From positions 145,795 through 209,794 of the forward strand of contig JAJTFA010000003.1 in the NCBI GenBank assembly GCA_021299635.1: a stretch of 64,000 nucleotides of DNA, given 5' to 3'. Below the pieces are notes generated by a model, which did no database searches, had not been told where the DNA came from, and saw nothing but the letters and a program-made list of their open reading frames with translations. A program made the position numbers and the translations under genes. Of this stretch, positions 350 to 16,900 are shown piece by piece (position 1 is the first letter of the stretch; each line of letters begins with the position of its first letter). The DNA comes from Sphingobacteriales bacterium. Lineage in GTDB: Bacteria > Bacteroidota > Bacteroidia > UKL13-3.

Positions 350-366
350 CGGCATAACCAACTAAA

Positions 367-396
367 CAAAAAACCCCGCACATGCGGGGTTTTTTG
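367..396. terminator. Bidirectional rho-independent terminator between convergent genes
   Basis: GC-rich hairpin ccccgca(374-380)/tgcgggg(383-389), flanked by an A-run upstream and a T-run downstream. It sits between the recJ stop and the stop of the minus-strand DUF2795 gene. Confidence 0.75.
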
Positions 397-618
397 TTAC
401 AATTCGTCTTCGTTGTAAAAATAATCTTCATTGGTTGGATAATCCGGCCAAACCTCTTCAATACTTTCAAAAGGCTCTCCGTCATCTTCAAGCTCCTGCA
501 GGTTTTCAATTACCTCAAGCGGTGCCCCTGAGCGTATTGCATAATCTATTAATTCATCTTTTGTTGCCGGCCAAGGCGCATCATCCAGATAGGAAGCCAA
601 TTCAAGTGTCCAGTACAT
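397..618 (-). CDS. DUF2795-family small acidic protein
   Basis: 73-aa ORF with an ATG start. The segment PATKDELIDYAIRSGAPLEVIENLQEL matches the DUF2795 signature as I remember it. Confidence 0.65.
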   Translation of the reverse strand: MYWTLELASYLDDAPWPATKDELIDYAIRSGAPLEVIENLQELEDDGEPFESIEEVWPDYPTNEDYFYNEDEL

Positions 619-709
619 AGTGTGTATCTTTTTTCTATGCGCGAATATAAAATTATTGATATTTGAACGTATAAAATTTTCGCAATGTGCAAAAGATGTT
701 TAAATGCCT

Positions 710-1780
710 TTAAATGAGGATGTTTTGTACGGTTTGTTGCTTATTGATTTTGTCACCCGGTGTTTTTACAAATGCTTTGGCTACCAAAAACGCTTTTGGA
801 ACAGCATAAGCTGAAATATTTTTATGGATGGCGCCTTTCCATTGTTCAAGGATTTTTTCATCAGGTAAATTACCCTCAAACACGGCAATAATTTTATCGC
901 CCAGTTTTGCATCAGGCACTGCAGTTACAAAAAATTTAACTTGAGGTGCCAGTTGCTCAAGCCATATTTCAATCTCTCTGATATGAAACTTTATGCCTCC
1001 GCTATTCACCACTTCATCTGCTCTGCCAATAATTAAAAAATGTGTTTCATCTATCATTGTTGCCATATCATTTGTAGATAACCATTGGTTATGTGTAGCA
1101 ACATTGCATATACACAAACAATCACGTTCATCGAGTTTAATACGTGTGCCGGGCAAGGTTTGGTATGCGGTATCTTTTATATTTCTGAGCGCAATATGAC
1201 TAATGGTTTCTGTCATTCCATACGTATGCCAAACAGATGCTGTGCATGTGCTTAATATGTTATTGAGCTTACCTGATAACGGTGCACCACCAATGAGTAT
1301 GTGTTTAAACCTGTTTAGCTTTTGCAGCAATGTGTTGCTGTTTTCTTCTATTAGTGTAGCCAGTTGCAAAGGCACAAATGAGGCAAACGTGTAGGTGTGT
1401 TCTGATGGAATTTGATGAAGAATTTGTGCTGAAGGAACCAGCACGGTAATGCGGCAATCCAATACCATGGCTCTTACCAGCATCATGGCACCACCAATCA
1501 TGTGCGGGTTTATACAAAGTAGAATGTGTTCGGTTGAATTGAGATGTAAGGCATCGATGGTATTTTGTGCACTCCACAACATTTGCTCACGACTCACTTC
1601 TATGGCCTTAGGAGTGCCGGTTGAACCCGATGTATGAAAGATAAAACTACTTGTTCCTTTTAACCACTGTTTGCAAAACGTAAGCGCAAAACGGCCTGTT
1701 TCGCCACACGATTCAAAGCGGCTTTCATCAGCAGTTTTTAAATCTTCCCAGCTATAGCATATGTCTTGCACTTGTATCAT
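710..1780 (-). CDS. AMP-dependent synthetase/ligase, short form (O-succinylbenzoate-CoA ligase-like)
   Basis: 356 aa with AMP-binding motif I HTSGSTGTPKAI, YGMTE and a GRADEVVNSGGIK hinge region. The size is typical of short Bacteroidota MenE-type ligases. The substrate is not determinable from sequence. Confidence 0.6.
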   Translation of the reverse strand: MIQVQDICYSWEDLKTADESRFESCGETGRFALTFCKQWLKGTSSFIFHTSGSTGTPKAIEVSREQMLWSAQNTIDALHLNSTEHILLCINPHMIGGAMMLVRAMVLDCRITVLVPSAQILHQIPSEHTYTFASFVPLQLATLIEENSNTLLQKLNRFKHILIGGAPLSGKLNNILSTCTASVWHTYGMTETISHIALRNIKDTAYQTLPGTRIKLDERDCLCICNVATHNQWLSTNDMATMIDETHFLIIGRADEVVNSGGIKFHIREIEIWLEQLAPQVKFFVTAVPDAKLGDKIIAVFEGNLPDEKILEQWKGAIHKNISAYAVPKAFLVAKAFVKTPGDKINKQQTVQNILI

Positions 1781-1872
1781 TCACTGCAAAGTAATGATAA
1801 TTGATATGAATTAATGGATTAACTGCAATGCTTGGAACATTGTTTTCGTTTTAAGTAAATCCATACACTGGT

Positions 1873-2601
1873 TTATTCAGATTCCTTTTTTGCCAATCGT
1901 TTTCGCTCAGCCTCCTGCGCTTCTTCAAATGCAATTCCTTTGGTTATATCAAACGTATCTAATAAAAATTGGGTGTATTTTATTTTTTGCCCTTTGGCCA
2001 TAAACTTTTGTTCGTAATAGGTTTTAATTTCTTTGAGGTAGGCAGATGCATTGGGGTTGTGGTGCACATCATGGTCAATGGCCAGGGGGGTAATACCTAC
2101 TTGCGGCAACATATCTATGGTGAAATGAAACAACTCATCGGAGTCGGTTTTAAAGTTTACCAACCCACCGGGTTTTAAGATTTGCTTGTATAGCGTTAAA
2201 TACCTTGGATGTGTTAAGCGGTGTTTGGCATGGCGCAGTTTGGGAAAAGGATCGGGAAAGGTGATCCAAATTTCATCTACCTCTGCCTGCGCAAACACCT
2301 CTGTAATTTTATACATGAGCAAACGAGCAAATGCCACATTGTGCAAACCTTGTTCTTTTGCAATGCCTGCGCCACGCCACATGCGGTTGCTTTTAATATC
2401 AATGCCAATAAAGTTTTTATCAGGAAAAGTGTCAGCTAACGAAATGGAATATTCGCCCTTGCCGCAACCCAATTCCACTGCAATGGGATTATTGTTTTTA
2501 AATACATCACTTCGCCATTTCCCTTTTAATTCATACGGAAAATCAAAACAATGATCGAACTGCTTAAACTCTGCAAAACGTCTGATTTTATCTTTAGGCA
2601 T
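1873..2601 (-). CDS. trmB: tRNA (guanine-N7)-methyltransferase
   Basis: SAM motif VELGCGKGEYS and a TrmB-like core (FPDPFPKLRHAKHRL). I start at the internal ATG (2599-2601, MPKDKIRRF...). The upstream 36 codons of the maximal ORF run through a low-complexity intergenic repeat. Confidence 0.85.
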   Translation of the reverse strand: MPKDKIRRFAEFKQFDHCFDFPYELKGKWRSDVFKNNNPIAVELGCGKGEYSISLADTFPDKNFIGIDIKSNRMWRGAGIAKEQGLHNVAFARLLMYKITEVFAQAEVDEIWITFPDPFPKLRHAKHRLTHPRYLTLYKQILKPGGLVNFKTDSDELFHFTIDMLPQVGITPLAIDHDVHHNPNASAYLKEIKTYYEQKFMAKGQKIKYTQFLLDTFDITKGIAFEEAQEAERKRLAKKESE

Positions 2602-2630
2602 AAGGCTGCAAAGAAATGAAAAAAAGAATT

Positions 2631-2766
2631 GAGAAGCGAGAGACGAGAAACGAGACAAAAGAAGAAAGACCGCTGTGCTCAAAGAGGAAAGAAGCGAGAT
2701 GTGCGACAAAATTTTCTAATTTTTCAATCTTCTAATAACAAACCCGCAATCACAACCCGCAATCAC
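2631..2766 (+). repeat. Intergenic composite repeat, copy A (purine-rich gagaaacgaga module plus tctaat/caatct short-period module)
   Basis: gcgagagacgagaaacgagac...gaaagaccgctgtgctcaaagaggaaaga...gatgtgcgac followed by ttttctaatttttcaatcttctaataacaaaccc. The reverse complement recurs at 8024-8140. The tctaat module recurs at 11221-11345. Confidence 0.7.
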
Positions 2767-4040
2767 TCTCCTTCTTTTACCGGAAGAATATCACTGAGTT
2801 TTACACTCAATTTAATTTCGCCAGTTAACAGATATTTAAGCATTGGTCCGGCAAGAATAGAAGTAAGCACTGCCATTACCACCAAGGCAACAAACAATGG
2901 CAGGGTAATGAGTCCGGCCTGAAGGGCAAGCAAGCCTAATACAATTTCCATGGCTCCGCGTGCATTCATACCAAAACCAACAGCCAAGGCTTGTTTAACG
3001 GTAAGCTTTCCCCACAGGGCACCAAGTCCTGCACCCAGTAATTTTGTTACAACCGCAATACCGGTTACTATCAATACCAGAACAAGATCAAAGTTGGCTA
3101 TAAAATCAACTTTAAAACCAATGAATACAAAAAACAGCGGTGCAAAAATATTGGTAATAAACTGATGAATAATATCTCTCGTCTTTTCATTTAAGTGAGC
3201 AGAATCGCCAATGGCTATACCCATAATAAATGCACCGAAAATGGCATGAATGCCAATTTTTTCTGTGAAAGCAGCACCTAAAAAAGCAAAGCCCAAGGAG
3301 AAGGCAAGCACCCCACCGGGCCAACTTAAGTTGCGTTGAGCCCAAGGCAGTGATTTGTTGATGAGGATGCGTCCGGCAGTAAGTATCACAACGGCATACA
3401 ACAACGTTAAGCCTAGTGTATTCAAAAATTCATAAGAGCTGGTGCCACTATGCATCATGCCTAAAACTACGGAAAAAAGAATCCAGCCAATTACATCATC
3501 AAACATGGCAGCTGCAATGATTATCATGCCGATTTTGGTTTTAAATAAATCAAGATCCATTAAGGTGCGTGCAATTACCGGAAGCGCGGTAATGGCCATA
3601 GCTGTGGCAAAAAATAAACTAAAAACCAGTTGGCTGCTTTGAGCCCCATCTCCAAAATAGGGGAATAGCATATTGCCCGAAAAATATCCTAAGGTGAGCG
3701 TAGATATTAAACCTACAAAACTTGTTTTAAGGGCTGTTTTACTTTGTTGCCTTATCACAGAAAATTCAACTTCCATACCTGCAGCAAACAGCAGCATAAT
3801 AACAGAAACAGTGCTGATGCCATTTAGCACCAAACCAACATGGCCTTGTGTGGTAAAGACAACTTCATTGAGCTGAGGGAAATATTTACCCAGCAAGCTG
3901 GGTCCGAGGCAAATTCCGGCCAATAACTCGCCCACCACCAAAGGCATTTTAAGTTTTCTGAAAAATTCACCTAACAACCTACCCGCAAGCAGCATGATGC
4001 CAATTGCAACCAGAAGATTGATGGTTTCGTTATGGTTCAT
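2763..4040 (-). CDS. Cation:proton antiporter (CPA2/Kef-like Na+/H+ exchanger family)
   Basis: 425 aa, polytopic and hydrophobic throughout, with an N-terminus typical of this family (LLAGRLLGEFFRKLKMPLVVGELLAGICLGPS). Confidence 0.8.
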   Translation of the reverse strand: MNHNETINLLVAIGIMLLAGRLLGEFFRKLKMPLVVGELLAGICLGPSLLGKYFPQLNEVVFTTQGHVGLVLNGISTVSVIMLLFAAGMEVEFSVIRQQSKTALKTSFVGLISTLTLGYFSGNMLFPYFGDGAQSSQLVFSLFFATAMAITALPVIARTLMDLDLFKTKIGMIIIAAAMFDDVIGWILFSVVLGMMHSGTSSYEFLNTLGLTLLYAVVILTAGRILINKSLPWAQRNLSWPGGVLAFSLGFAFLGAAFTEKIGIHAIFGAFIMGIAIGDSAHLNEKTRDIIHQFITNIFAPLFFVFIGFKVDFIANFDLVLVLIVTGIAVVTKLLGAGLGALWGKLTVKQALAVGFGMNARGAMEIVLGLLALQAGLITLPLFVALVVMAVLTSILAGPMLKYLLTGEIKLSVKLSDILPVKEGE

Positions 4041-4052
4041 TGTGCCGGCTTT

Positions 4053-4928
4053 TTAATCATCTATTCTTGAATGTATAATCATTAAATCGCAAGGCAAATC
4101 GGCCAATGCATATTCAATATCATGAGGGAAAACACGGTCAATAACATTGAGTTTGGTATCCGGTGAGTTAAGCACCAGTAAATCGGCTTTATTATCACGT
4201 GCATATTTGGTAATAACAAATCCGGGTTTGCCTTCAAGCCTTTCTATATTTACTTTCAGATTTCCGCAATCTGTACAACGCAAAATTTCGTCTAGTTTTT
4301 CTTTTTCATGCTTCAGTACTTTCTCGCGGTTGCTATCTGCTTCATTATCGGTAAAAGCATCAGAGCGTATAAGCGCAAGTTTGCCCGGGTCTTCTTCCTG
4401 TATTACATCTACCATGCGTGCATGGGCGGCTTTCGCTACATAAATGGCAGCCTCAATGGTGTTTACGGTTTTGGGATTATCACTTCCTTCTACCACAATG
4501 CGTTCAAATGGCCTCGAGAGTAGATCAGGCTCTCTAAGCATTAGGATGCTGCATTTGGCTTTGCGGCAAAGTTTGCGTGCCACTGACCCCAAAAAATACT
4601 TCAGTAAGCTTTCTTTTTCCAAAGCACCTGCTACCAGTAAATCAACCTGCCGGGCTTTACATACCTCCAGAATTTTATCAACCGGATCGCCTGTTTCCCA
4701 AACCACTTCGTTTCCTAGCCCATTTAACTGAAACCGTTGCAATTGTTCATTCAGGTATGATTCCTGTTGCTGGTCGTGGCTACCCACATGTATAAATAGC
4801 AGCGGGGCTTTAAAAGTATCCTGCAACCTTTTTGATGCAGCTAAAATAGCTTCGGTATTAGGCGAAAACGCTACTGCAACTGCAATTCTTTCAAACGGAT
4901 AAGCAGCTTTTTTCTCAATATTACTCAT
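4053..4928 (-). CDS. Universal stress protein, tandem Usp domains
   Basis: 291 aa with two Usp-like halves (RIAVAVAFSPN...; ADLLVLNS...PCDLMIIH). Adjacent to the antiporter on the same strand. Confidence 0.7.
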   Translation of the reverse strand: MSNIEKKAAYPFERIAVAVAFSPNTEAILAASKRLQDTFKAPLLFIHVGSHDQQQESYLNEQLQRFQLNGLGNEVVWETGDPVDKILEVCKARQVDLLVAGALEKESLLKYFLGSVARKLCRKAKCSILMLREPDLLSRPFERIVVEGSDNPKTVNTIEAAIYVAKAAHARMVDVIQEEDPGKLALIRSDAFTDNEADSNREKVLKHEKEKLDEILRCTDCGNLKVNIERLEGKPGFVITKYARDNKADLLVLNSPDTKLNVIDRVFPHDIEYALADLPCDLMIIHSRIDD

Positions 4929-5019
4929 GCATACAAAAATAGAAATCTCTGCTTACCAAATGCAGATTAATTTTCAGTTATGTAATTGTGCGGAGGTTTA
5001 TTAAACTTGCCACTTTATC

Positions 5020-7071
5020 ATGGTAAAAAAAGATTTATTAATAGAGGCTTACTCCCTAATGTGCACGGCAAGGGCCATGGCAGAAATGTATGATGCCAAC
5101 CGCAATATTTGCAAGTATGTACACTCTACCTCCAAGGGACATGAAGCCATACAGTTGGCCACAGGCATGCAGCTGAAACCGTATGATTATGCCGCACCCT
5201 ACTATCGTGATGAATCCATGCTGCTGGGCATGGGGCTAAGTCCGTATGAGTTAATGTTGCAATTGTTGGGTAAGGCTGATGATCCGTTTTCAGGTGGGCG
5301 CACGTATTATGCACATCCCAGCCTAAATAGAGAAGAGTTCCCGAAAATGCCACACCAAAGCAGTGCCACCGGTATGCAGGCTATTCCGGCCACCGGTATG
5401 GCTCATGGCATAGCTTATAAAGAGCGGGAAGGAATTAATAAAAAAGGAGAATATCCGGTAGTGCTTTGTTCTTTCGGAGATGGCTCAATAACAGAAGGAG
5501 AGGTTGCCGAGGCTTTTCAAATGGCTGTGCTTAAGCAACTGCCCATTATCTATCTGGTGCAGGATAACGAGTGGGGAATTTCGGCCAGTGCAGATGAAAT
5601 GCGTGCCATGGATGCCTATGAATATGCAGCAGGCTTTAAAGGATTAAAACGCATGCGGGTTGATGGAAGTGATTTTGTTGAGGCATATGAAGCCATGACA
5701 GAAGCTATTGATTATGTAAGAAATAACAGAAAGCCCATATTGGTTCATGCGCGTATTCCTTTGCTGGGGCATCATACATCAGGTGTTAGAAAGGAATGGT
5801 ACCGAAGTGAGGATGATTTGGAGAAACACGCCAAAGATGATCCCATTCCCAAAATGCGCAAGCTATTACTTGAGATAGGATTGGAAGAAAAAGAGTTAAT
5901 TGAAATTGAAAAAGACGCTGCCAATAAAGTTGATCAACAATTTAAGCAGGCTGTAGAAGCTGCAGAGCCAGACCCTGCAACGGTTGAAGAGCATGTGTTT
6001 ACACCAAGCGGAGCAACGGAAGAAATGGGCAACCGTAAACCCAATGGAAAAGAACCGGTGGTGATGGTGGATGCGGCATTGCATGCCGTGGATGAGTTGA
6101 TGGCAAGGCATCCGGAGTGTATTTTTTACGGGCAGGATGTGGGTGCACGTTTAGGCGGGGTTTTTCGCGAAGCGGCTACCTTGGCCAAAAAATATGGCGA
6201 TAACCGCGTGTTTAATACACCTATACAAGAAGCATATATTGTAGGCTCTACGGTTGGTATGAGTGCCGTAGGTGTGAAGCCGATTGTAGAAATTCAGTTT
6301 GCCGATTATGTGTGGACCGGAGTAAATCAGCTGGTATGTGAAATAACCAAATCGTGCTACCTAACCATGGGAAAATATCCGGTAAGCGCCATTATTCGCA
6401 TACCCATTGGTGCTTATGGAGGCGGTGGGCCCTACCACAGCGGTAGTATTGAATCCACTTTGCTTACGCTTAAAGGAATAAAAATAGCTTATCCAAGCAA
6501 TGCTGCTGATATGAAGGGCTTGATGAAGGCAGCCTATTATGATGGGAACCCGGTCATTATGTTAGAGCATAAGGGATTGTACTGGAGCAAAAATCCGGGA
6601 ACGGAAGGTGCAAAATGCATTGAGCCGGATGAAGATTATATATTACCTTTTGGCAAGGCACAAATTGTATTGGAGGCAACGGATGATGCGGTGGATAATG
6701 GCCAATCATGTGCTGTAATAACCTGGGGAATGGGGGTATACTGGAGCATGGCGGCAGCTAAGAGATTTAATGGCAGTGTTGAAGTGTTAGACTTGCGCAC
6801 ATTGCAGCCACTGGATGAGGATATGATTATGCAAATGGCAATGAAACATGGCAAGGTAATGATTGTAACAGAGGAGCCATTGCTTAACTCGTTTGCTGAA
6901 TCGCTTGCAGGCCGCATTTCACAGCAGTGCTTCCGATACCTGGATGCACCGGTAGCAACAGTGGGCTCAAAAAATTTACCGGCTGTAGCATTGAATATGG
7001 GTTTAGAGGCAGCCATGCTGCCCAATGCAGACAAGGTAGCAGAGAAAATAGAAGAACTACTGAAATATTGA
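5020..7071 (+). CDS. Thiamine-diphosphate-dependent 2-oxoacid dehydrogenase E1 component, fused alpha+beta subunits
   Basis: 683 aa. The N-terminal half is E1-alpha-like (GDGSITEGEVAEAFQMA, YLVQDNEWGIS). The C-terminal half is E1-beta/transketolase-like (FNTPIQEAYIVGSTVGMS, DLRTLQPLD). Confidence 0.8.
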   Translation: MVKKDLLIEAYSLMCTARAMAEMYDANRNICKYVHSTSKGHEAIQLATGMQLKPYDYAAPYYRDESMLLGMGLSPYELMLQLLGKADDPFSGGRTYYAHPSLNREEFPKMPHQSSATGMQAIPATGMAHGIAYKEREGINKKGEYPVVLCSFGDGSITEGEVAEAFQMAVLKQLPIIYLVQDNEWGISASADEMRAMDAYEYAAGFKGLKRMRVDGSDFVEAYEAMTEAIDYVRNNRKPILVHARIPLLGHHTSGVRKEWYRSEDDLEKHAKDDPIPKMRKLLLEIGLEEKELIEIEKDAANKVDQQFKQAVEAAEPDPATVEEHVFTPSGATEEMGNRKPNGKEPVVMVDAALHAVDELMARHPECIFYGQDVGARLGGVFREAATLAKKYGDNRVFNTPIQEAYIVGSTVGMSAVGVKPIVEIQFADYVWTGVNQLVCEITKSCYLTMGKYPVSAIIRIPIGAYGGGGPYHSGSIESTLLTLKGIKIAYPSNAADMKGLMKAAYYDGNPVIMLEHKGLYWSKNPGTEGAKCIEPDEDYILPFGKAQIVLEATDDAVDNGQSCAVITWGMGVYWSMAAAKRFNGSVEVLDLRTLQPLDEDMIMQMAMKHGKVMIVTEEPLLNSFAESLAGRISQQCFRYLDAPVATVGSKNLPAVALNMGLEAAMLPNADKVAEKIEELLKY

Positions 7072-7125
7072 ACCGGGTTTGATTAATGAGCGAAAAGATA
7101 TATTTTCGCATCCCGTTTTCATTTA

Positions 7126-7199
7126 GGGCCCATAGCTCATTCGGTTAGAGCATCTGACTCATAATCAGGGGGTGCTTGGTTCGATCCCAAGTGGGCCCA
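7126..7199 (+). tRNA. tRNA with CAT anticodon (elongator Met or lysidine-modified Ile2; not initiator-like)
   Basis: Hand-folded cloverleaf: acceptor gggccca/tgggccc, D arm gctc-attcggtta-gagc, anticodon arm tctga-ctCATaa-tcagg, T arm cttgg-ttcgatc-ccaag, discriminator A. The three G-C pairs typical of the initiator anticodon stem are absent. Confidence 0.9.
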
Positions 7200-7208
7200 C
7201 AACGTGGG

Positions 7209-7239
7209 ACCGGGCAGCGCAGGCTGACCCGGTTTTTTT
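7209..7239 (+). terminator. Rho-independent terminator after the tRNA
   Basis: Stem accggg(7209-7214)/cccggt(7228-7233) followed by a T-run. Confidence 0.6.
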
Positions 7240-7364
7240 ATGTAAAAAAACCGTTATTGGGGAAGAAGTTTATCCCGAATTGCGGAGGTAAGATTTTTAG
7301 GGGCAAACATCTTCGGACGACCCCTCAGATAAACTATTCTGCAAACATTAATTTACGCAATACT

Positions 7365-7988
7365 ATGTCAACAATATCTACAGTTATTTTCGATTTGGGT
7401 GGTGTAATTCTGAATCTTAATCAAGACCTTACACTTCGTGCATTTCAGCGCTTAGGTCTGGATTTGTCGCAAGTAAATTTTAACAGTCATATTTTTACCG
7501 ATTTTGAAACAGGTAAAATTTCTGCATCTGACTTCAGAATGGGTATTAGAAGCCATTTAAAACAGAATATTTCTGATGAGGCCATTGATACCGCATGGAA
7601 TGCTATGTTGCTAGATTTGCCTGAGCATAGACTCAAAGCTATTGAGCAACTTAGAAAAACGCACAAGGTATATTTACTAAGCAATACCAATAGCATCCAT
7701 ATCGATGCCTTTAATTCTTACTTTAAACAGCAATATCAGCCTGAAAGGTGGGTTCAGTTATTTGATAAGATTTATTACTCCTATGAAATAGGTCTGCGTA
7801 AACCCAATACCGATATTTATGATTTTGTAACAACCGATATTCAAATACAACCTGAACATTGTTTGTTTATTGACGATAGCTTAGCCAATATCAATGGAGC
7901 TGCTGATGCAGGTTTAAAAACAATACATGCCTTGGAGCCTCTTGGCGAAAAGCTTTGGAGGCAATTAAAAACAGCGCTTACAGAATAG
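7365..7988 (+). CDS. HAD-superfamily hydrolase (subfamily IA-like)
   Basis: Motif I VIFDLGGVIL, motif II LLSNTN, motif IV FIDDSLANINGA. The start is set at ATG 7365. The longer ORF from 7176 overlaps the tRNA and its terminator. Confidence 0.75.
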   Translation: MSTISTVIFDLGGVILNLNQDLTLRAFQRLGLDLSQVNFNSHIFTDFETGKISASDFRMGIRSHLKQNISDEAIDTAWNAMLLDLPEHRLKAIEQLRKTHKVYLLSNTNSIHIDAFNSYFKQQYQPERWVQLFDKIYYSYEIGLRKPNTDIYDFVTTDIQIQPEHCLFIDDSLANINGAADAGLKTIHALEPLGEKLWRQLKTALTE

Positions 7989-8023
7989 GGTTATTAAGTT
8001 TGTTTTTACGGGTTGGTCGCTAA

Positions 8024-8140
8024 AATTATAAGATTGAAAAATTGAAAGATTAGAAGATTGAAAGATTTCATTCTCTCACATCCCATGTCTTTCCTCTTTC
8101 AGCGCAGCGGTCTTTCGTCTCGTTTCTCGTTTCTCGCCTC
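8024..8140 (-). repeat. Intergenic composite repeat, copy B (reverse complement of copy A)
   Basis: The plus strand reads agattgaaaaattgaaagattagaagattgaaagattt then tctctcacatcccatgtctttcctctttcagcgcagcggtctttcgtctcgtttctcgtttctcgcctc. Reverse-complemented, it aligns with 2631-2745. Confidence 0.7.
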
Positions 8141-8399
8141 TTTCATATCATTCAAACCTCCCAATGCCTTATGTGTTACATCTACTAGTAAAAATTTTAC
8201 TCTTTTCCCAGCTGAAAATCAAATTGTATTTCAAAGTACTGAAAACCACATTTATTAATAATTCTCCACAAGCACTGTTGCAGTAAATATAGGATGTGAA
8301 AAACGCAATGGCAATAAAATTAAGGCTTTCAGCCATTGTGCATGAAAAGGTTTTAATTGGACACCACATGGTTTTTAATTTTGCATCTTGTTTTAAATC

Positions 8400-9716
8400 A
8401 TGAATACTTCACAAGAATTTATATCCATACAAAGGCAGGTTTTAAGCACCTTAATTCAGCACCCGCATTTATTTGGGCGGTATGCAGAAAAAATACGTTT
8501 AGTGTATTTTACTGAGCCTGCTTTTAAGCAATTGCTCTTGGTCATGCGTTCTTTAAATCAAGCCTATGCAACATTTGATCTTCACTTGCTGAGAAATGAA
8601 TTGAAGAAAGAATCGGAAGAAGCAAATCTTGTCTTGGTTGATGAAATGGCTAATGAGATTGCGGAGCAAGCAGATTTAGAAATTAAGTTGAATGCTTTAA
8701 AGGAGTATACCACTCGAAAGATGTTTTTTGAGTTGGGCGAAACACTTTTTAATAAAAGCATGGATTCTGATATACCTGTTGCTGATTTGCAAACGACCTT
8801 ATCAAATTGTATGCAAGTATTATCTGGTATGCAATCCGTTGGCAATACCGAAAGCTTGAAAGAAATTTTGAATCGAATTAAAATCTCTTCTGAGTCAGAT
8901 GAGTCTTATACTTGGTTCGACTCCAATCTGCAGGCGCATTTGGGAAGCATTGAGTCGGGAGAATTAATTGTAATTGGTGCTCGACCAGGTATTGGCAAAA
9001 CGGCATTCTTGCATACACAACTGCTTCATTTGGCATCTCATCATCAAGCACCAGTCGGTTATATCAATATTATAGAAAACGAACGTGCGCTGATTGCAAA
9101 GTTGCTTAAGGCTTCAGGTGAAGATTTAACAAAAGCGGAAAACGAGAATTTATCTTTAAACGGCAAAACCTGGCCTATATATCTATGCAGTAATTTAGGA
9201 GGTACCCAATTAAAAGATATCAAAAATGCGGCAAACTTTCTTAAGTATAAATATGATATAAAAGTGTTGGCAATTGACTGTTTTCAGCAAATTACCTATC
9301 AGTCTAAAATGAATTATCGTGATTATGAATTAGGCATGGTTGTCCAGGAATTGAAAAAAATAGCCAAAGAACTTGATATAGCCATCTTACTAACCTCACA
9401 ACTCAACAGATCAGCTGAAAGAAGAGGTTATGTGGCGATTCCAATGCTTTGCGACCTTAAAGAAACCGGTTATTTGGAGGAGGTAGCAGATAAGGTTTTG
9501 CTGCTTCACCGATATGCCTATTATGGTATAAATGTATATGAAGATGGTACGCCTACCGGTAATGACAGCAATGTTTTGATAGCTAAAAATAAGTATGGAA
9601 AATCGGGTAAGGTGTTATTATCATTTGATAGTAAGTTGGGGAAGTTTTTGCCTAAAGCACAACCACTGCCTATGGTGTTTGAGTTTCCGGCAAACAGGCT
9701 AACCGATTTGGAATAA
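8400..9716 (+). CDS. Divergent DnaB-family (RecA-fold, hexameric-type) helicase, candidate retron partner/effector
   Basis: 438 aa with an ATG start. It has a DnaB-N-like helical N-terminus. Motifs are Walker A GARPGIGKT (nt 8976-9002), Walker B-like VLAIDCFQQI, a DnaB-like LTSQLNRSAERRG segment and CDLKETGYLEEVADKVLLLHR (compare DnaB SDLRESGxIEQDAD). It seems shorter than the replicative DnaB of this phylum as I recall it, and I do not see the N-terminal signature I associate with replicative DnaB. A TAATTTTG motif (8376-8383) lies 17 nt upstream. The stop is 18 nt before the retron ncRNA. Confidence 0.75.
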   Translation: MNTSQEFISIQRQVLSTLIQHPHLFGRYAEKIRLVYFTEPAFKQLLLVMRSLNQAYATFDLHLLRNELKKESEEANLVLVDEMANEIAEQADLEIKLNALKEYTTRKMFFELGETLFNKSMDSDIPVADLQTTLSNCMQVLSGMQSVGNTESLKEILNRIKISSESDESYTWFDSNLQAHLGSIESGELIVIGARPGIGKTAFLHTQLLHLASHHQAPVGYINIIENERALIAKLLKASGEDLTKAENENLSLNGKTWPIYLCSNLGGTQLKDIKNAANFLKYKYDIKVLAIDCFQQITYQSKMNYRDYELGMVVQELKKIAKELDIAILLTSQLNRSAERRGYVAIPMLCDLKETGYLEEVADKVLLLHRYAYYGINVYEDGTPTGNDSNVLIAKNKYGKSGKVLLSFDSKLGKFLPKAQPLPMVFEFPANRLTDLE

Positions 9717-9734
9717 ACATATTCGGTGCACCAT

Positions 9735-9880
9735 TACACAAATACAATGAAGACATGCTAAAGTCTTGTAACTGTTGTTTCTGCAGTTGATTTAAAATAG
9801 CAGGTGGCAGCCAACGAACAAGTTTCACTTCGTTCACTTGTTCGTTGCTTCAGGGGGTTAAATAGATTGTATTTGTTGTA
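9735..9880 (+). ncRNA. Retron msr/msd non-coding RNA (template and primer for msDNA)
   Basis: a1 9735-9748 pairs with a2 9866-9880 (11 perfect bp acaaatacaat/attgtatttgt, plus 3 bp after a 1-nt bulge). G9749 directly follows a1, the position of the priming guanosine. Two short msr-like hairpins lie at 9750-9767 and 9770-9788. A perfect 12-bp msd-like stem caacgaacaagt(9812-9823)/acttgttcgttg(9836-9847) has a 12-nt loop. The RNA ends 2 nt before the RT ORF. Confidence 0.8.
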
Positions 9881-9882
9881 AT

Positions 9883-10917
9883 GTGTGCCCGATTTTTAAC
9901 GATGAATTTTTGGTGATGAGATCACTTGAAGAACTTTTAAAAATATTAGCAATTTCTTCGGAGCTTTTGCAACAATTACTTGCAGCACCGGAGTATACGA
10001 TATACCATATTTCCAAAAAAAGCGGAGGCACACGCACCATTCAGGCGCCTCAGGGATTGTTGCGTCAAACACAGGTTCTGCTGGCAAAGTACCTTCAGAC
10101 AGTTTATTCCCGCCATCACTTGCCATGCATACATGGATTTGTTCCATCAGCCGGTTTGCTAAAATATGGAGTTCTGTCAAATGCAGTACCTCATTTAAAT
10201 AAGCCCTTTGTATTAAATATGGATATTAAAAACTTTTTTGAAAGTATAACGGCAAAAAAAGTGAAGAAAAGCTTGTGTGAATTTCCATATTATTTTAATG
10301 AAGAAGTGGCAACAGCTATTGCATTGTTGTGCACGTATCAAAAACAATTGCCTACAGGCGCTCCTACTTCTCCCGTATTATCAAACATGGTATTTTATAT
10401 TCCGGATGTGGCTTTGTTGCAATGGATAACAGATGTGAACGAGACAAAGCAAATTGATGAAACAGGCATTAGTTATACCAGATATGCAGATGATTTAACT
10501 TTTTCAGGATCGGCAAATCTGGTGCTTTCACTGCAGGCTCGCATCATATCATTTTTTGCTACTGAGGGATTTGAAATCAATGCAAAAAAAACAAGGGCAC
10601 AAACACCTCATGGACCTCAATGGGTGACGGGAATAAAGGTGAATGAAAGATTAAACATTAGCAGGTATTATATCAGAAACCTGAGAGCTGTCATACATCA
10701 GATGCGGGTTCATGCTGCAGAAGCTGTTGTGTGCAGGTATTTAAAATTACCGGCTACAACGCAAATAAATACTGCGCATGTAAAAAAGATGTTGAGCAGT
10801 GTACAATCAAAAATAGCATGGGTAGGAATGGTAAGAGGCAAAGCAGACCCGATATATCTGCGTTTACAAACTCAATTTAATGTAGCAAGGGAGGTGATGC
10901 TGGTAAAAGAATCTTGA
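9883..10917 (+). CDS. Retron-type reverse transcriptase
   Basis: 344 aa. RT motifs in order: KKSGGTRTIQAP, HGFVPSAG, NAVPHLNKPFVLNMDIKNFFESI, LPTGAPTSPVLSN, YADD (nt 10483-10494), GFEINAKKTR, and the retron-characteristic VTGIKVN. There is no maturase, endonuclease or other C-terminal domain. The start is GTG 9883, or alternatively ATG 9916. Confidence 0.85.
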   Translation: MCPIFNDEFLVMRSLEELLKILAISSELLQQLLAAPEYTIYHISKKSGGTRTIQAPQGLLRQTQVLLAKYLQTVYSRHHLPCIHGFVPSAGLLKYGVLSNAVPHLNKPFVLNMDIKNFFESITAKKVKKSLCEFPYYFNEEVATAIALLCTYQKQLPTGAPTSPVLSNMVFYIPDVALLQWITDVNETKQIDETGISYTRYADDLTFSGSANLVLSLQARIISFFATEGFEINAKKTRAQTPHGPQWVTGIKVNERLNISRYYIRNLRAVIHQMRVHAAEAVVCRYLKLPATTQINTAHVKKMLSSVQSKIAWVGMVRGKADPIYLRLQTQFNVAREVMLVKES

Positions 10918-10927
10918 AGGGGAATGC

Positions 10928-11200
10928 GGGAATTGGGTATTAGGTTTTGGGGTTTAGGTTTATGCAAGTTAATATTCAACAATGAGTATGCAGCTGTTAG
11001 CTGTTGGCCTTTGGCTGTTTGAGATTTTTTAACGGAGTAGCTAAAACTTGGGAATTGGGTGTTAGGTTTTGGGGTTTAGGTTTATGCAAGTTAATATTCA
11101 ACAATGAGTATGCAGCTTTTGGCTGTTGGCCTCTGGCTGTTTGAAGTTTTTTAACGTAGTGTCTAATGCTTGGGATTTGGGTATTAGGTGTTGATGATTT
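10928..11200 (+). repeat. 122-bp tandem direct repeat, about 2.2 copies
   Basis: gggaattgggtrttaggttttggggtttaggtttatgcaagttaatattcaacaatgagtatgcagc... starts at 10928 and again at 11050, nearly identical. A third truncated, diverged copy starts near 11172. No ORF. Confidence 0.8.
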
Positions 11201-11220
11201 GCGATTAAATTTAAATATCT

Positions 11221-11345
11221 AAATTACTCAATCTCCTAATTTTCTAATCTTTTAATCTTCTAATAACAAACCTTCTAATCTTTCAATCTTCTATTAACAA
11301 ACCTTCTAACCTTCTAATCTTTCAATCTTTTAATCTTCCAATCTT
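11221..11345 (+). repeat. Short-period tctaat/caatct repeat block, copy C of the intergenic repeat family
   Basis: ttctaatcttttaatcttctaataacaaaccttctaatctttcaatcttctattaacaaaccttctaaccttctaatctttcaatctt... has the same orientation as copy A and is inverted relative to copy B. It abuts the pyrF stop codon. Confidence 0.7.
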
Positions 11346-12152
11346 CTAATCTCCTACATACTGCGCCATTTCATCTGCCATTTTTTTAGCTTCGGCTGCA
11401 GCAGCTTCGGCAAAATCTTTACCTGATGAGGCATAGATGATGCTGCGTGAGGCATTGATAAGCAATCCGCAATCCTGATTCATGCCATATTTTACCACAT
11501 CGGCCAGACTGCCTCCTTGCGCACCCACACCGGGTACCAATAGAAAATGATCGGGGATGAGTTTACGAATATGAGCCAATTCCTCTGCTTTGGTTGCACC
11601 AACCACAAACATCAGGTTGCCTGTATTACCAATTTGTGTGGTAGTTGTAATCACATGCTCATATAACTTTCGGTTGCCAATAAGTTGCTGTTCATAGTCG
11701 GCACTGCCCGGATTGGATGTAAGCGCAAGTACAATGCCCCATCTGTTGTCGTAGGCAAAGAATGGTGCAATAGAATCTTTACCCATGTATGGTGCCAGTG
11801 TTACGGAATGAAATGGCAATGTTTCAAAGAATGCGCGTGCATACATATTGCTGGTATTGCCAATATCTCCTCTTTTGGCATCTGCTATGGTAAAGATATT
11901 TTCCGGTATGTGAAACAGGGTGCGCTCCATGCTTTCCCAACCCTTAACGCCATTGGCCTCATAAAATGCAGTGTTGATTTTATAACTAACACAGTAATCT
12001 TTGGTGGCATCAATAATGGCCTTATTAAATTCAAATACAGGATCATCCAGGTGTAATAAGTGTGACGGTATTTTTTTAATATCGGTATCTAGGCCTACAC
12101 ATAAAAAACTTTTTTTTAGTTTAATCTGCTTTATGAGTTCTGTTCTGTTCAT
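11346..12152 (-). CDS. pyrF: Orotidine 5'-phosphate decarboxylase (type 2)
   Basis: FLCVGLDTD, ADAKRGDIGNT and LLVPGVGAQGG motifs. The start is set at ATG 12150-12152 (MNRTELIKQI...). The longer ORF would overlap the upstream gene. Confidence 0.85.
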   Translation of the reverse strand: MNRTELIKQIKLKKSFLCVGLDTDIKKIPSHLLHLDDPVFEFNKAIIDATKDYCVSYKINTAFYEANGVKGWESMERTLFHIPENIFTIADAKRGDIGNTSNMYARAFFETLPFHSVTLAPYMGKDSIAPFFAYDNRWGIVLALTSNPGSADYEQQLIGNRKLYEHVITTTTQIGNTGNLMFVVGATKAEELAHIRKLIPDHFLLVPGVGAQGGSLADVVKYGMNQDCGLLINASRSIIYASSGKDFAEAAAAEAKKMADEMAQYVGD

Positions 12153-12156
12153 GTTT

Positions 12157-12822
12157 TTAAAATATAAAGCTGAATTCAAAAGCCATGTGCTGCAGGTTTT
12201 TGCCCTGATTTGCCGGTCCAACCGCAGGTAACAGGCCTTTATTAGCATCCAGTAATCCGTATTTTACAGCCAATTGAAATCCCACAAAAGGCGTATGAAA
12301 TTGTGCTCCCGCCATCACCATCAAATCATGCTTGTTTAGTGCAGGTGATAGAGACTCCTGAACCTGTGAATTTGTTTTAAACATAATGGAATTAAGCAGG
12401 TTTGCGTATTGAGCACCCACAAATACATTGCTTGTGTTTTTTTCATTGAGTCCGTACATCAGCAATACCGGTATATCAACAAAGTAAGTTCGTATGGTTC
12501 CGTATTCATCTACCTTATTACCAAACTTGCCTCCTCTGATGCTGATATTGGTCTCGGTTTGCAATGCCCAATGTGTGTTAAACCGATAGCGGAAATAGCC
12601 ACCACCAACCAAACCAAAAATAGGATACGGATTGATTGCTTCTTTGCCACCTATCATAAACAAGCCACAGCCTAATTTTACACCTAATTTTATTTTTTCG
12701 TTGATAGGAGGGATGACCAAAACACCCGGATCATCTTCTTCATTAGCCAGGCTGTCGGCTTCCTGGGCAAAGGCAGTCTGCAACAGCAATAAACAGGCGA
12801 TTAAAGCTAACAGGTATTTCAT
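12157..12822 (-). CDS. Outer-membrane beta-barrel (porin-family) protein
   Basis: Signal peptide MKYLLALIACLLLLQTAFA|QE, alternating beta-strand pattern, C-terminal ...FEFSFIF. ATG at 12820-12822. Confidence 0.65.
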   Translation of the reverse strand: MKYLLALIACLLLLQTAFAQEADSLANEEDDPGVLVIPPINEKIKLGVKLGCGLFMIGGKEAINPYPIFGLVGGGYFRYRFNTHWALQTETNISIRGGKFGNKVDEYGTIRTYFVDIPVLLMYGLNEKNTSNVFVGAQYANLLNSIMFKTNSQVQESLSPALNKHDLMVMAGAQFHTPFVGFQLAVKYGLLDANKGLLPAVGPANQGKNLQHMAFEFSFIF

Positions 12823-12869
12823 TATAAGCAAAACTAACTAAAAAAAAGAAGTGTCAACTTAATGTTTTA

Positions 12870-13868
12870 TTAAAAACCTGGAAACAATTCATCCGCATCC
12901 TCCTCTTCTCCGTTTTTACTTGTTTTAAATGCATTGCGGATATTGTTAAATGCAGGGAGCCAAATAATACCAGCCTGAATCAATATGGTTGGATGGGTAT
13001 CGGCACGATAATAAGTTACTCCATCCCTGTTTCCATCTTCGGTAAAAGTAATTCGTTGTTTAGTTATTAGGTAAATACCCGCCTGAAGCCGAAGGTTATT
13101 TTTTGCCTTGTAAATGCCTGCCAATCCTGTTTGTAAAGAGCGTAACCTGTGCACAGCAATGCTTGCATCAGTGCCAGCAAAATAATTTCTGTTCTCAAAA
13201 CGGTTGAAGCCACCATTGGGTCGCATTAACAATACAAGGCTCCATTGCTTGCTTAATGGTTGCCTGTAGGAAAGTTGCATAGGCAATAATACTGATAAGC
13301 GTGAACCACAGGTAAACTGATAACGTGCACCTAACAGGGGCAAGGCAAGTCCTTCGCCAAACTGAAACGTATAGGTGATGCCTGCTTGTGTAAGTAATTT
13401 GGGCGACCATCTATAGGAGTATATAAAAACAGAACTAAAACGCATGGCAGGGTTTGAAATGGTAAATTCATCTTCGTTCCATTGTGGTCTGATTTGTGCC
13501 AGCAGCAGGTGTTTGTTGCCAAAACCTGCATACCCTCCAACTCCTGCACCTGCACTGATGAGCAAACGCGATTGCTGCACAAGGCTGATATCTGCCTTGC
13601 TCAGTTGCAGCATTGGGTTTAAAAAGAATCCTAAGTTGGTGGCATTCTCTGCCCCGGTTACTTTAGACCACACAGGTATTAATGCGCCTACTTGCAAGGT
13701 TTGGTAAGCAAATGTTTGTTCTGAGCTGTCTTTTGCAGCAGCTATGCTGCGGTTGCCATATTCCAGTTGAATGCGGGTAAAGTTAAAACGGCCGGTTACC
13801 TTGCTTTGCGCGGTTACAAAAGCCAGCAACACCGTTTGAAAAAGGATAATTGAGAAAAATTTAAGCAT
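12870..13868 (-). CDS. Hypothetical outer-membrane beta-barrel-like protein
   Basis: Signal peptide ...LLAFVTA|QS, amphipathic strand pattern rich in aromatic/Gly residues, terminal Phe (..ELFPGF). I do not recognise a family. Confidence 0.5.
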   Translation of the reverse strand: MLKFFSIILFQTVLLAFVTAQSKVTGRFNFTRIQLEYGNRSIAAAKDSSEQTFAYQTLQVGALIPVWSKVTGAENATNLGFFLNPMLQLSKADISLVQQSRLLISAGAGVGGYAGFGNKHLLLAQIRPQWNEDEFTISNPAMRFSSVFIYSYRWSPKLLTQAGITYTFQFGEGLALPLLGARYQFTCGSRLSVLLPMQLSYRQPLSKQWSLVLLMRPNGGFNRFENRNYFAGTDASIAVHRLRSLQTGLAGIYKAKNNLRLQAGIYLITKQRITFTEDGNRDGVTYYRADTHPTILIQAGIIWLPAFNNIRNAFKTSKNGEEEDADELFPGF

Positions 13869-13942
13869 TTATTTGATGTGGCAGTGCGAATATTCAAATA
13901 TTTATTTATTAAATTCGGATTTAATTAACAACCACGCTTACT

Positions 13943-16900
13943 ATGAAAAATAACTTACTTATCTTAGCTATTCTTACTATATGCATGCAGCATGCGGGCG
14001 CACAAGTGCATAGCACTCCTGTGCATATAATTAATAACCTGCAGCACCAGCGCGTATGGAATGCACAAACACCAGCCGGTGCTTTTGGTAAAACCAGTAA
14101 TTGCGGGCCCGATACGGTAAACTACACCTTTAACAAAACTACGCAGTTTAACGCCATTGCATTAAACAATACAACCAGTGGAAATACCTTTTATCAGTGG
14201 TATCCTGCACCACAATCCTTAACCATTAATGGGTTTGATTTTTTTGCCTGGCAATCGGCTAGCACCAATGCTGTGGTGCCTGTTACCTGCAGGATTTACA
14301 GTGCAAGTATTATCGACTCTTTGCCCGCATATTCCGGAACACCTCCAACAACTAATCCACCGCTGGCTACGGTCATTGTGAATGTTGATTCAACTTTTGG
14401 TGGCGGGTTGTTATCTAATATGCGCAGAAGAGCAGTATTTAGCGCACCTGTAACAGTAACCGGTCCGTATATCATCAGCATTGAAAATAGCAGTGCAACA
14501 AACGTTTCTGTTATCACAAATAGCTGGACAGCAGGAAACGGTGCAAGTGAGTGGCTAAGTTCAGTTAGAATTGGAACTAATATTATCAGAAGTTATAATG
14601 TGAATGTAGGTGGTCCGGTTTTCAATGCCGATTTTATTTTCTGCCCCTACACCAGCTATTCACTCACGTCTGACTTTACGGTATCACCGGTATGTAATCA
14701 GGGAGGAAACCTTATGACCTATACCAATACTTCATCTCCAATAAATTTTAGCAGATTCTATAGCTTAAGGGCATTTCAAAATTTACCTCAATTCATGTTC
14801 ACCTGGGATTATGGTGATTCATCGGGAACCTTTTTTACAGTAAACGGTTCTCGCACGTATAATTATCGTGTGCCATATACAGTAAGTTTAAAAGATTCAA
14901 TTATTGGCTGGACAAGAGGCTGTGTTGATACGAGAACCAGGCTAATCAATCCGGCTCCGTCAACGCCAAATGCAAACAATAATGGCCCTTTATGTCAGGG
15001 CGCAACTTTACAACTTACAGCAGACTCAATTCCAGGCGCAACATATTACTGGACCGGTCCTAATAATTTTACATCCACGCTTCGCAATCCAGGTATTGCA
15101 GGGGTAACTTCTTTGCAGGTGGGTACATATAATGTAAGAGCCATCTCCGGTCAGTGCTCATCTATGGTGGCCAGTACCAATTTTAATATCATAGCTACAC
15201 CTAATGTGCAAAGCAACTCTCCACTATGTGTTGGCCAAACACTTAATCTGGCTGCTACTGCAATAACCGGTGCCGTGTATGCATGGAGTGGCCCCAATGG
15301 TTTTAGCTCGTCTCTCTCAAATCCTACCAAAGCAAATATGCAACAATCCGATACAGGCACTTACAGCGTTACCATGACGGTTCCAGGTTGTGGCGTAATC
15401 GGTCCATATACGGCTTATGTTGCGGTTAATCCGGTGCCACCAACCCCAACAGCAAGCAATAACGGGCCCTTATGTGCAGGTGATAATCTAAATTTAACGG
15501 CAAGTAGTTTTGCCGGAGGCAGCTATGCATGGACAGGACCTAATGGTTTCAGCTCTACACAGCAAAATCCAAGCAGACCAAATGTAACGACTCTTATGGC
15601 AGGATCATATTCGGTTACCTTAACGGCCAACGGATGTTCATCCCCTTCGGTATCAACCACAGTTAGTATTAATAATATTCCATCTCCGCCAACTGCAGGT
15701 AGCAACGGACCTTTATGCGCAGGACAGTCGTTGAGCTTAACGGCCACTTCCATTCCCGGAGCAACGTATACCTGGAGCGGCCCCAATAATTTCAGTTCCA
15801 CTTCTCAAAATCCTACCCGCACCAATGTGGGAACAATTGATGGGGGTGTATACAGCGTTTTTGCAACAGTAAATGGTTGTCCATCCACGACAGCAACCAT
15901 CAGTGTTAATATTACCAACAATACGCCAACTCCGGTGGCGGGTAGCAATGCTCCGCTTTGCCCCGGTCAGAATTTACAATTAACGGCTTCCAATATTACA
16001 GGAGCTACATATAGCTGGACTGGCCCAAATAGTTTCACATCAAACCTGCAAAATCCGGTTATTAATAATGTAACTGCTGGTCAGGCGGGGTTATATAGTG
16101 TTACGGCCACTACATCAGGTTGCGGAACATCTAGCCCTGGAACGGTAAATATTGCAGTTAATACATTACCGGCAGCACCAACAGCTTCTAACAATGGTAC
16201 ATTGTGTGATGGACAAAATATTAATCTTACCGCTTCAAATGTTACAGGAGGAACTTACAGCTGGACTGGCCCGAACGGTTTTACATCAACTGCCCAGAAT
16301 CCTGTTATAACCAATGCGAGTGCTTTAAAAGCGGGTAATTATTCTGTATCGGTAACAGTTGCAGGTTGCGGCACATCACCAGTTGGCAATACCAATGTTA
16401 TTGTTAGAAGAAATCCTGCCCAGCCTGCAATTACCGCCAATAATCAGGTTTGCTCAGGCGATACCTTACGCTTTTCTGCTTTAAGTAACGCTGTCGGTCC
16501 CAATGCAACATATGCATGGAGTGGTCCTGGTGGATATTCTTCCAGCAATAGAACCAATGAAATTGCAAATGTTTCAGCAGCTGCCAATGCAGGTACGTAT
16601 AGTGTTATTGCATCTGATTCTGGCTGTAGCTCACCACCGGCTTCGGTAACGGTTTCTGTAAAAGCCCTGCCTGCAACGCCTGTTGCCAGCAACGGTGGTA
16701 ATGTGTGTGAGGGAGCCAATATCAATTTATTTTCAACAACCATTGCAGGTGCAACCTATAAATGGATTGGTCCGAATGGATTTAGTTCAGGTGCCGAAGA
16801 TCCAATCATCATTGGCGTTACACCTGCTGCATCCGGTTCTTACACCGTTCAATCAATTGTAAATGGTTGTGCATCTGCTCCTGCAAGCACATCCGTTTTG

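Follow-up and report, generated by a model that had tools for sequence, protein, structure and literature searches.

A Bacteroidota retron family with a DnaB-family protein as its partner

A DnaB-like gene, a retron RNA and a reverse transcriptase in one operon

The DNA analysed here, referred to as the window, is a stretch of 64,000 nucleotides from a Sphingobacteriales genome (contig JAJTFA010000003.1, positions 145,795 to 209,794), and its element of interest is a compact locus in which a gene for a DnaB-like protein is followed by a retron non-coding RNA (ncRNA) and then by a reverse transcriptase (RT) gene, all on the + strand (Table 1). An earlier note, made by reading the sequence, had reported three same-strand elements here and interpreted them as a retron whose third module is a DnaB-family gene and not one of the known retron effectors, a distinction that matters because retron types are defined by their effectors. 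The three elements are indeed present where they had been placed, and together they form one operon consisting of a promoter-like box, the DnaB-like gene, the msr/msd ncRNA and the RT gene.

The RT is of retron type, carrying the NAxxH, VTG and YxDD motifs, and its matches to the retron RT models of PADLOC range from 1e-82 to 1e-40. The three top models, RT-Protease_XI (276 bits), RT-TIR_XII (255 bits) and RT-Toprim_I-C (239 bits), are matched only over their RT portions; NCBIfam retron models, including Retron_TIR and Ec67, also match, all below their cutoffs, and Pfam returns RVT_1 only. The possibility, raised earlier, that the RT might fall outside the retrons was thus not borne out, and its sequence appears closest to RT clade 8 of Mestre et al. 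2020 (types XI, XII and I-C). The earlier note had described a 344-aa RT starting at position 9883, 2 nt after the ncRNA. Its motifs NAVPH, YADD and VTGIKVN are all there, but the start is probably misplaced: the GTG at 9883 falls within the 3' arm of the ncRNA, and since alignment with the homologues begins at the ATG at 9916, a more likely product is a 333-aa RT separated from the ncRNA by a 22-nt gap.

The RNA between the two genes has the organisation of a retron ncRNA, with a1/a2 repeats enclosing msr hairpins and an msd stem-loop, and with covariation across its helices. This architecture had been recognised at 9735-9880 as a region of ~146 nt, an extent that proves too short, as the covariance model gives 9721-9893 (~173 nt). 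The segment 9717-9890 folds at -56 kcal/mol (z=-4.7), a stability reached in 0 of 200 shuffles, and includes the exact inverted repeats 9738-9748/9866-9876 and 9812-9823/9836-9847, as well as a conserved GTTYCTG loop on the second msr hairpin. An Rfam scan of 7000-12500 at E<=10 found no family for the ncRNA, a tRNA-Met being its only match. Within the close clade the ncRNA is more conserved than either protein and than the flanking genes, and RNAalifold predicts 39 pairs, 7 of which show compensatory changes. The covariance model was built from five loci only (L004-L008) because in window-type sequences the 3' arm came out misaligned when the trimmed ncRNA was aligned with MAFFT; it also matches six distant loci, more weakly and always in the gap between the DnaB-like gene and the RT. 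An alignment of 14 homologues has pairing in 95.5% of cells and changes on both sides in 39 of 45 pairs, with all six helices covarying, counts that are somewhat inflated given that the alignment was fitted to the covariance model. None of 500 shuffles reached this level of pairing, and slid controls gave 34-51%.

The 438-aa protein belongs to the DnaB family, as had been proposed, and does so over its full length. In Pfam, DnaB_C is detected at 1.6e-38 and the DnaB N-terminal domain only weakly, at 4.5e-5, and the three-part domain architecture of the family is present. A profile of the protein's own family matches solved DnaB structures end to end (4nmn, E=2e-42), while the AlphaFold2 (AF2) model, which has a predicted local distance difference test (pLDDT) score of 79, gives Foldseek TM scores of 0.75-0.79 to full-length DnaB chains. 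It does not, however, score as a replicative helicase: the equivalog model TIGR00665 is covered from position 6 to 432 of 435, yet with 156 bits where the cutoff lies at 385. In the protein database there are only ~14 close clusters, which are 48-85% identical and all 432-443 aa long, and beyond them matches fall to ~28% identity, to canonical Bacteroidota DnaB of 510-530 aa. On sequence grounds the gene appears to be a divergent paralogue and not the housekeeping dnaB. Nor is its product a known retron effector, in agreement with the earlier note: a PADLOC scan of the protein returned no retron effector, only a weak, Walker-A-level match to mad8 (3e-4), and the 13-type classification of Mestre et al. 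2020 never mentions a helicase.

When the family was aligned with Bst and Gka DnaB and with canonical Bacteroidota DnaB, the window clade was found to retain Walker A (GxRPGxGKT), the Walker B Asp, the SQLSR sensor and the Lys finger. Where canonical DnaB reads FSLEMS, the clade reads INLIENE (MAFFT), with Ile or Leu at the catalytic-Glu position and Glu at +1. The stimulating fingers are K418 and R420 (PMC8421360), and the Arg-finger position is occupied by Lys in 8 clusters and by Thr in 6; the Gly of the single-stranded DNA (ssDNA) loop is replaced by Ser in most members. The ATPase site is accordingly not a complete DnaB site, and with Lys or Thr in place of the Arg finger and a shifted catalytic Glu, processive helicase activity in the window clade is doubtful. 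The word "helicase", which the earlier note had used, would therefore seem safe for this clade as a family label and doubtful as an activity.

Table 1. Positions of the features of the retron locus and of the nearby tRNA in the window.
Feature	Position	Strand	Basis or remark
Promoter-like Bacteroidota -7 box TAATTTTG	8376..8383	+	17 nt upstream of the DnaB-like ATG
DnaB-family protein, 438 aa: N-terminal helical domain, linker, RecA-like C-terminal domain	8400..9716	+	Pfam, TIGR00665, PDB profile, AF2 model
Walker A GARPGIGKT, residues 193-201, intact	8976..9002	+	Invariant in clade
I225-E226: Ile at catalytic-Glu position (Bst DnaB E241, 'SLEMS'), Glu one residue later	9072..9077	+	HMMER alignment to 2vye/4nmn; MAFFT
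K398 at trans-acting Arg-finger position (Bst R420, 'AKQRNG')	9591..9593	+	Alignments
C-terminal tail beyond the DnaB fold, motif F-E-F-P-x-N-R-L-x-D-L-E	9654..9713	+	Alignments; low pLDDT in AF2 model
Retron ncRNA (msr-msd), ~173 nt	9721..9893	+	Covariance-model match, 113 bits
ncRNA outer stem, 5' arm	9724-9748	+
ncRNA outer stem, 3' arm	9866-9891	+
Candidate branching G	9749	+
msr hairpins	9750-9767 and 9769-9789	+
msd hairpin	9812-9847	+
Stand-alone retron RT, 333 aa from ATG 9916 (ORF open from GTG 9883)	9916..10917	+	PADLOC, motifs
RT motif NAVPH	10180-10194	+
RT motif YADD	10483-10494	+
RT motif VTG (VTGIKVN)	10624-10632	+
Recombination tract, 1,380 nt, 2 differences from L003	9555..10934		Last 60 DnaB-like codons, ncRNA and RT
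tRNA-Met	7126-7200		Found by Rfam scan

Conservation, origin and recombination of the pair

The pairing of RT and DnaB-like gene extends well beyond the window. Across 25 independent loci the DnaB-like gene lies 84-222 nt (471 nt in one) upstream of a member of this RT clade on the same strand, and a homologous ncRNA was found in the intervening gap wherever it was searched for. A profile scan of 185,579 species genomes with the DnaB-like alignment gave nine loci, all in Bacteroidota metagenome-assembled genomes, and in 8 of the 8 with enough downstream DNA an RT follows on the same strand after ~150-190 nt; a tenth locus, L010, is an ordinary Bryobacteraceae DnaB with no RT nearby. Approached from the RT, the search returned the close clade at 52-94% identity followed by >100 stand-alone RTs at 35-43%, and in all six relatives sampled at 36-41% identity the gene directly upstream is a DnaB_C gene. 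Metagenome and viral-contig scans contributed 160 loci, which were scored with profiles of both proteins: every RT of at least 380 bits with upstream DNA (7 of 7) has a DnaB-like gene 84-203 nt upstream, and the ~150 lower-scoring RTs are long fused proteins without such a gene, with the exceptions of L035, L063 and L103. Two further close-clade loci (L183 and L184) show the same pair. Across 19 loci, pairwise identity in the DnaB-like protein tracks that in the RT (r=0.91; Mantel, 0 of 5000 permutations), and for distant pairs taken alone r=0.73. Overall, the arrangement recurs in all informative related loci, in keeping with the earlier suggestion that the DnaB-family gene is the retron's third module, and we consider it close to certain that a retron and its obligate DnaB-like partner are present here, as part of a Bacteroidota-wide family.

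The tail with the motif FEFPxNRLxDLE can be aligned to that of canonical Bacteroidota DnaB, the terminal 'PF' being lost in the window clade. As the best non-retron matches are also Bacteroidota DnaB, these alignments suggest that the partner was captured from the host's own dnaB. The C-terminal extension of canonical Bacteroidota DnaB (P0037, P0060, P0031, P0018) ends in an acidic stretch plus 'PF' that resembles the C-terminal tip of SSB, and the 'PF' ending is kept in distant retron-linked DnaB_C proteins (L012, L013, L015, L016, L023-L030).

Comparison with three syntenic relatives (L001-L003), whose flanks are 83-93% identical to the window at the nucleotide level, shows the locus to be a mosaic. 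Between the window and L003, the neighbouring E1 dehydrogenase and pyrF proteins are 99% and 100% identical, whereas identity is only 51% over the first 378 residues of the DnaB-like protein and 100% over its residues 379-438 and the RT. The shared tract (Table 1), 99.9% identical to L003, stands out at the nucleotide level from flanks that are 85-93% identical and from the rest of the DnaB-like gene at 45-68%. Its two differences from L003, at 9793 and 9802, both lie in the unpaired ncRNA linker that joins msr hairpin 2 to the msd stem. L001 and L002 show the opposite pattern, with 88% identity over the N-terminal 378 residues and 55-59% in the RT. The locus is thus an island that keeps one fixed place on the chromosome, is hypervariable and recombines by modules, with tail, ncRNA and RT exchanged as a block. 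Hypervariability and recombination between genomes with near-identical neighbouring genes argue that the DnaB-like protein is not an essential replicative helicase, and hypervariable modular loci are typical of defence systems. The breakpoint lies just past a conserved LEEVADKV patch, and its position may reflect available homology and not function.

The description of the locus as a ~3.3-kb insert found no support, in that all three of the closest syntenic genomes carry it at the same site and no empty site was found. Relative to the window (2653-8004), a segment (212-5700) of L003, the closest of the syntenic genomes, that carries the E1 dehydrogenase, tRNA-Met and HAD genes is inverted, and one endpoint of this inversion abuts the retron locus.

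Promoter, neighbouring genes and repeats

The box TAATTTTG that the earlier note had pointed to upstream of the DnaB-like gene is present, and it is the sole TAnnTTTG on the + strand within 7995-15505. The same -7 box is conserved at -24/-27 in L001-L003, and a near-match is found in L004-L007. Across the whole window, TAnnTTTG occurs 70 times against 88 expected, and with no enrichment the box amounts to weak evidence. No box of this type occurs on the + strand between 8400 and the RT, an absence that is likewise weak evidence and is consistent with a single transcript. A scan for sigma-70 promoters and terminators was uninformative (12 found, 11.3 expected). A GGACAC/GTACAC motif lies ~35-45 nt upstream of the DnaB-like start codon (~8355-8366 in the window) and is kept at the same position in close and distant loci (L001-L007, L012, L013); it could be an operator or promoter element.

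The genes around the pair are housekeeping genes, as had been stated earlier, encoding an E1 dehydrogenase, the tRNA-Met, a HAD hydrolase, PyrF and an outer-membrane beta-barrel protein; the next gene after the RT is pyrF, in convergent orientation. One mechanically called ORF (7176-7988, TTG start) overlaps the tRNA-Met, and public assemblies place the true start of this HAD hydrolase at 7365, giving 207 aa. No integrase, Rep or other mobile-element genes were found around the pair in the window, L001-L003 or L183. No second effector candidate was found in the window either, and the RT has no fused domain.

Defence genes accompany the pair elsewhere. In L184 it is adjoined by a type I restriction-modification system, in L103 it is part of an element that also carries an integrase, a WYL-WCX regulator and an AAA_15/21 ATPase, and other loci have WYL, PDDEXK, UvrD and Abi_2/Fic genes close by. 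L103, a contig from IMG/VR, also carries a 252-aa ORF (6909-7667, +) after its DnaB_C-only gene and RT, with a start that overlaps the RT stop. This ORF has no Pfam match and no counterpart in the window, and it is possibly a third protein of that sub-lineage. Extra ORF(s) lie downstream of the RT in L013 as well, and L005 has a second, divergent RT (1068-2081, -; 30% identical to the window RT) ~1.7 kb upstream of its DnaB-like gene on the opposite strand.

Two kinds of repeat lie near the locus. Tandem octamer arrays, (AAGATTRA)n, occur at 8030-8067 (+), 11246-11345 (-) and 2718-2731 (-), directly 3' of the stop codons of the HAD hydrolase, pyrF and a Na/H exchanger and in the orientation of these genes (11 octamer matches against 0.11 expected). 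We considered the arrays as insertion boundaries of the locus and rejected this, since all three stand just 3' of stops and the third follows an unrelated gene; they may represent a 3'-end or terminator element specific to the lineage. Immediately downstream of the RT stop, a 122-nt tandem repeat (10928-11193) is present in 2.2 copies with a 90% match; L003 has one copy fewer, and the unit is found nowhere else in the window.

Possible functions and relation to known systems

The reading that we favour, with a probability of roughly one half, is that of an anti-phage retron in which the RT-msDNA complex would restrain a DnaB mimic that interferes with replication. By analogy with the tripartite retron toxin/antitoxin systems, the RT would make msDNA (multicopy single-stranded DNA) from the ncRNA. 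The RT-msDNA complex would bind the ring of the DnaB-like protein, probably via the ssDNA-binding channel of the RecA-fold tier, and keep it inert until a phage degrades, modifies or sequesters the msDNA. The mimic so released would compete with or poison the replicative helicase and its partners, through competition for partners or the poisoning of mixed rings, and phage replication would stall, possibly along with that of the host. The parts of this reading are not equally well placed: a role in defence is probable, and the defence genes beside the pair elsewhere speak for it, whereas replisome interference as the mechanism is a tentative proposal. The full DnaB fold, the C-terminal tail shared with the host protein and the substituted Arg finger and catalytic Glu all speak for a mimic, and interference is favoured over unwinding because the full DnaB architecture is kept while the trans Arg finger is absent in the window clade. 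A related version, which we hold as a long shot, has an ATPase-impaired helicase mimic tethered to or loaded on msDNA that either guards the replisome, responding to phage proteins that hijack or inhibit DnaB, or poisons it when the msDNA is attacked. A literature search on DnaB-like decoys in phage defence found nothing relevant.

Several observations weigh against the favoured reading. In the wider family the Arg finger is mostly retained and the catalytic residue is mostly Asp or Glu, and many members consist of the RecA tier only (270-360 aa, without the N-terminal domain), so that an ATPase-dead full-length mimic cannot be the family-wide mechanism. Even in the window clade, some hydrolysis might be possible with the Lys at the finger position and the Glu one residue downstream. 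At 9749 and in most homologues, the 5' arm of the ncRNA is followed by G, but in L006, L008 and L013 by A, with the next G 3 nt on, so the branch point is not fixed. The window retron is flanked by housekeeping genes, with no defence island there. Lastly, msDNA production, toxicity and phage defence are inferred for every family member.

The simplest rival, an ordinary dnaB that happens to sit beside a retron, has the full DnaB domain architecture in its favour but is effectively refuted, as the survey of other genomes shows the pairing to be conserved: the gene is RT-linked in all 25 loci, in different genomic contexts, and the unrelated canonical DnaB of L010 has no RT nearby. An ordinary dnaB would also be hard to reconcile with 51% identity next to neighbours at 99-100%, with a score below the equivalog cutoff or with loss of the Arg finger. 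It is unlikely, although not to the same degree, that the effector is an active helicase, with msDNA serving as a loading substrate or decoy that sequesters a competent ring helicase until phage interference frees it for toxic unwinding or translocation on forks or ssDNA; the decoy or loading role of msDNA, first put forward in the earlier note, is speculation. The fold is that of translocating DnaB, with conservation of Walker A, Walker B, the 'SQLSR' sensor and the Lys finger. The idea gains plausibility for relatives that have the Arg finger, and most distant ones keep it along with an acidic catalytic residue. In the window clade it is countered by an Arg-finger position that has become Lys or Thr, and so is under no selection to stay Arg, by Ile or Leu in place of the catalytic Glu, and by an ssDNA-loop Gly that is mostly Ser.

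Somewhat less likely again is a guard or decoy sensor, in which phage helicase loaders or DnaB inhibitors would bind the DnaB mimic and thereby change the RT-msDNA complex, the output coming from the RT as altered or excess cDNA, or from an extra downstream gene. The apparent derivation from host DnaB, in best non-retron matches and shared tail motif, fits such a sensor, as does an allele that is hypervariable between near-identical genomes, as an arms-race surface would be, and extra ORFs do follow the RT in some relatives (L103, L013). The window clade, however, has no third protein and an RT without an effector domain, the many RecA-tier-only relatives have lost the primase-bound N-terminal surfaces, and there is no known trigger. 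A role outside defence is improbable; here the DnaB-like protein would be a cofactor of msDNA biogenesis or processivity, for example in RNA-DNA strand displacement, or the pair would be the replication module of a mobile element. Strict co-inheritance, a fixed gene order with the ncRNA in between and the integrase-bearing element of L103, listed in IMG/VR, would all be accommodated. A cofactor role is made less attractive by the degenerate ATPase site, which argues against a motor, and we know of no other retron RT that needs a helicase; the lack of mobile-element genes around the pair in the window, L001-L003 and L183 tells against a replication module, and allelic shuffling within conserved synteny resembles defence loci.

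To our knowledge, every characterised retron effector is an overt toxin, whether a nuclease, an NADase, a protease, a membrane protein or a nucleotide-modifying enzyme. A helicase-derived partner without a toxic domain implies either a new output, namely replication interference, or a new input, namely the sensing of phage factors that target DnaB. If the long-shot version with a tethered or loaded mimic is correct, this would be the first retron, and among very few defence systems, to use a copy of a core replication protein as effector or sensor, and it would provide a natural example of a ring helicase acting on a branched RNA-DNA substrate. The family is large and has clear limits (>100 RT clusters at at least 35% identity, all stand-alone, every sampled one DnaB-linked), and natural variants that keep or lack the N-terminal domain, and that keep or lack the Arg finger, make the question directly testable. 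The exchange of RT, ncRNA and DnaB-like tail as a block points to a possible contact site between the partners.

Among known systems, the tripartite retron toxin/antitoxin systems, such as Retron-Sen2/RcaT, were reportedly described by Millman in 2020 and Bobonis in 2022 and are said to include type I-A with a PtuAB-like ATPase plus HNH. They have in common with the window locus the logic of RT, msDNA and one accessory protein, which in some types is a P-loop ATPase; the window partner differs in being a RecA-fold DnaB derivative without a nuclease or obvious toxic domain, and is thus only a putative toxin. Replicative DnaB (TIGR00665; PDB 4esv, 4nmn, 7t21) has the same two-tier architecture and fold, and in the window protein one can recognise its Walker A and Walker B motifs, sensor Gln, Lys finger and ssDNA-loop region. 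In contrast to it, the window protein is obligately RT-linked and hypervariable between close relatives, is only 21-28% identical and is ~80 residues shorter than Bacteroidota DnaB.

The RT domains most similar to that of the window are those of types XI (RT-protease), XII (RT-TIR) and I-C (RT-Toprim), in which the effector is a C-terminal fusion, in line with the protease, TIR and Toprim fusions of RT clade 8 in Mestre et al. 2020. The window RT instead ends after the RT/thumb region and is accompanied by a separate DnaB-like gene; at 333-344 aa, it matches only positions 5-321 of the 510-position RT-Protease_XI model and so is not a type XI protein. Mestre et al. 2020 found no ncRNA for type XI, whereas the ncRNA of the window is clear, and the present work thus supplies an msr/msd model for type XI-like retrons, for which there was none before 2026.

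The earlier note had left open whether the pairing already figured in retron catalogues. It does, in one computational preprint, and is experimentally untouched: Toro (bioRxiv 10.64898/2026.05.14.725207, May 2026), working as a single author with SPIRE genomes, catalogues RT/DnaB_C pairings, which makes the association less novel. That preprint calls the meaning of the DnaB_C link unclear and in need of experiments, and reports CRISPR-Cas and Zeta toxin neighbours; its Table S2 lists, without highlighting them, five aquatic or anthropogenic Bacteroidota RTs with DnaB_C neighbours as low-confidence 'type1-C3'. We did not find described in it the strict upstream order, the full-length DnaB, the degenerate ATPase site, the host-like tail or the mosaicism. 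Compared by description only, the window locus fits TXI_noncan_h, Toro's candidate type XI-like lineage, having in common with it a protease-less, stand-alone type XI-like/clade 8 RT, a separate adjacent DnaB_C ORF, an a1/a2-flanked ncRNA just upstream of the RT, and occurrence in Bacteroidota. TXI_noncan_h comprises 29 mostly gut-associated loci from Bacillota and Bacteroidota, with DnaB_C in 69%, mostly at offset +1. In the family described here, by contrast, the partner is upstream and on the same strand at every locus, the hosts are freshwater Bacteroidota, and the partner in the window is a full-length DnaB with its N-terminal domain present.

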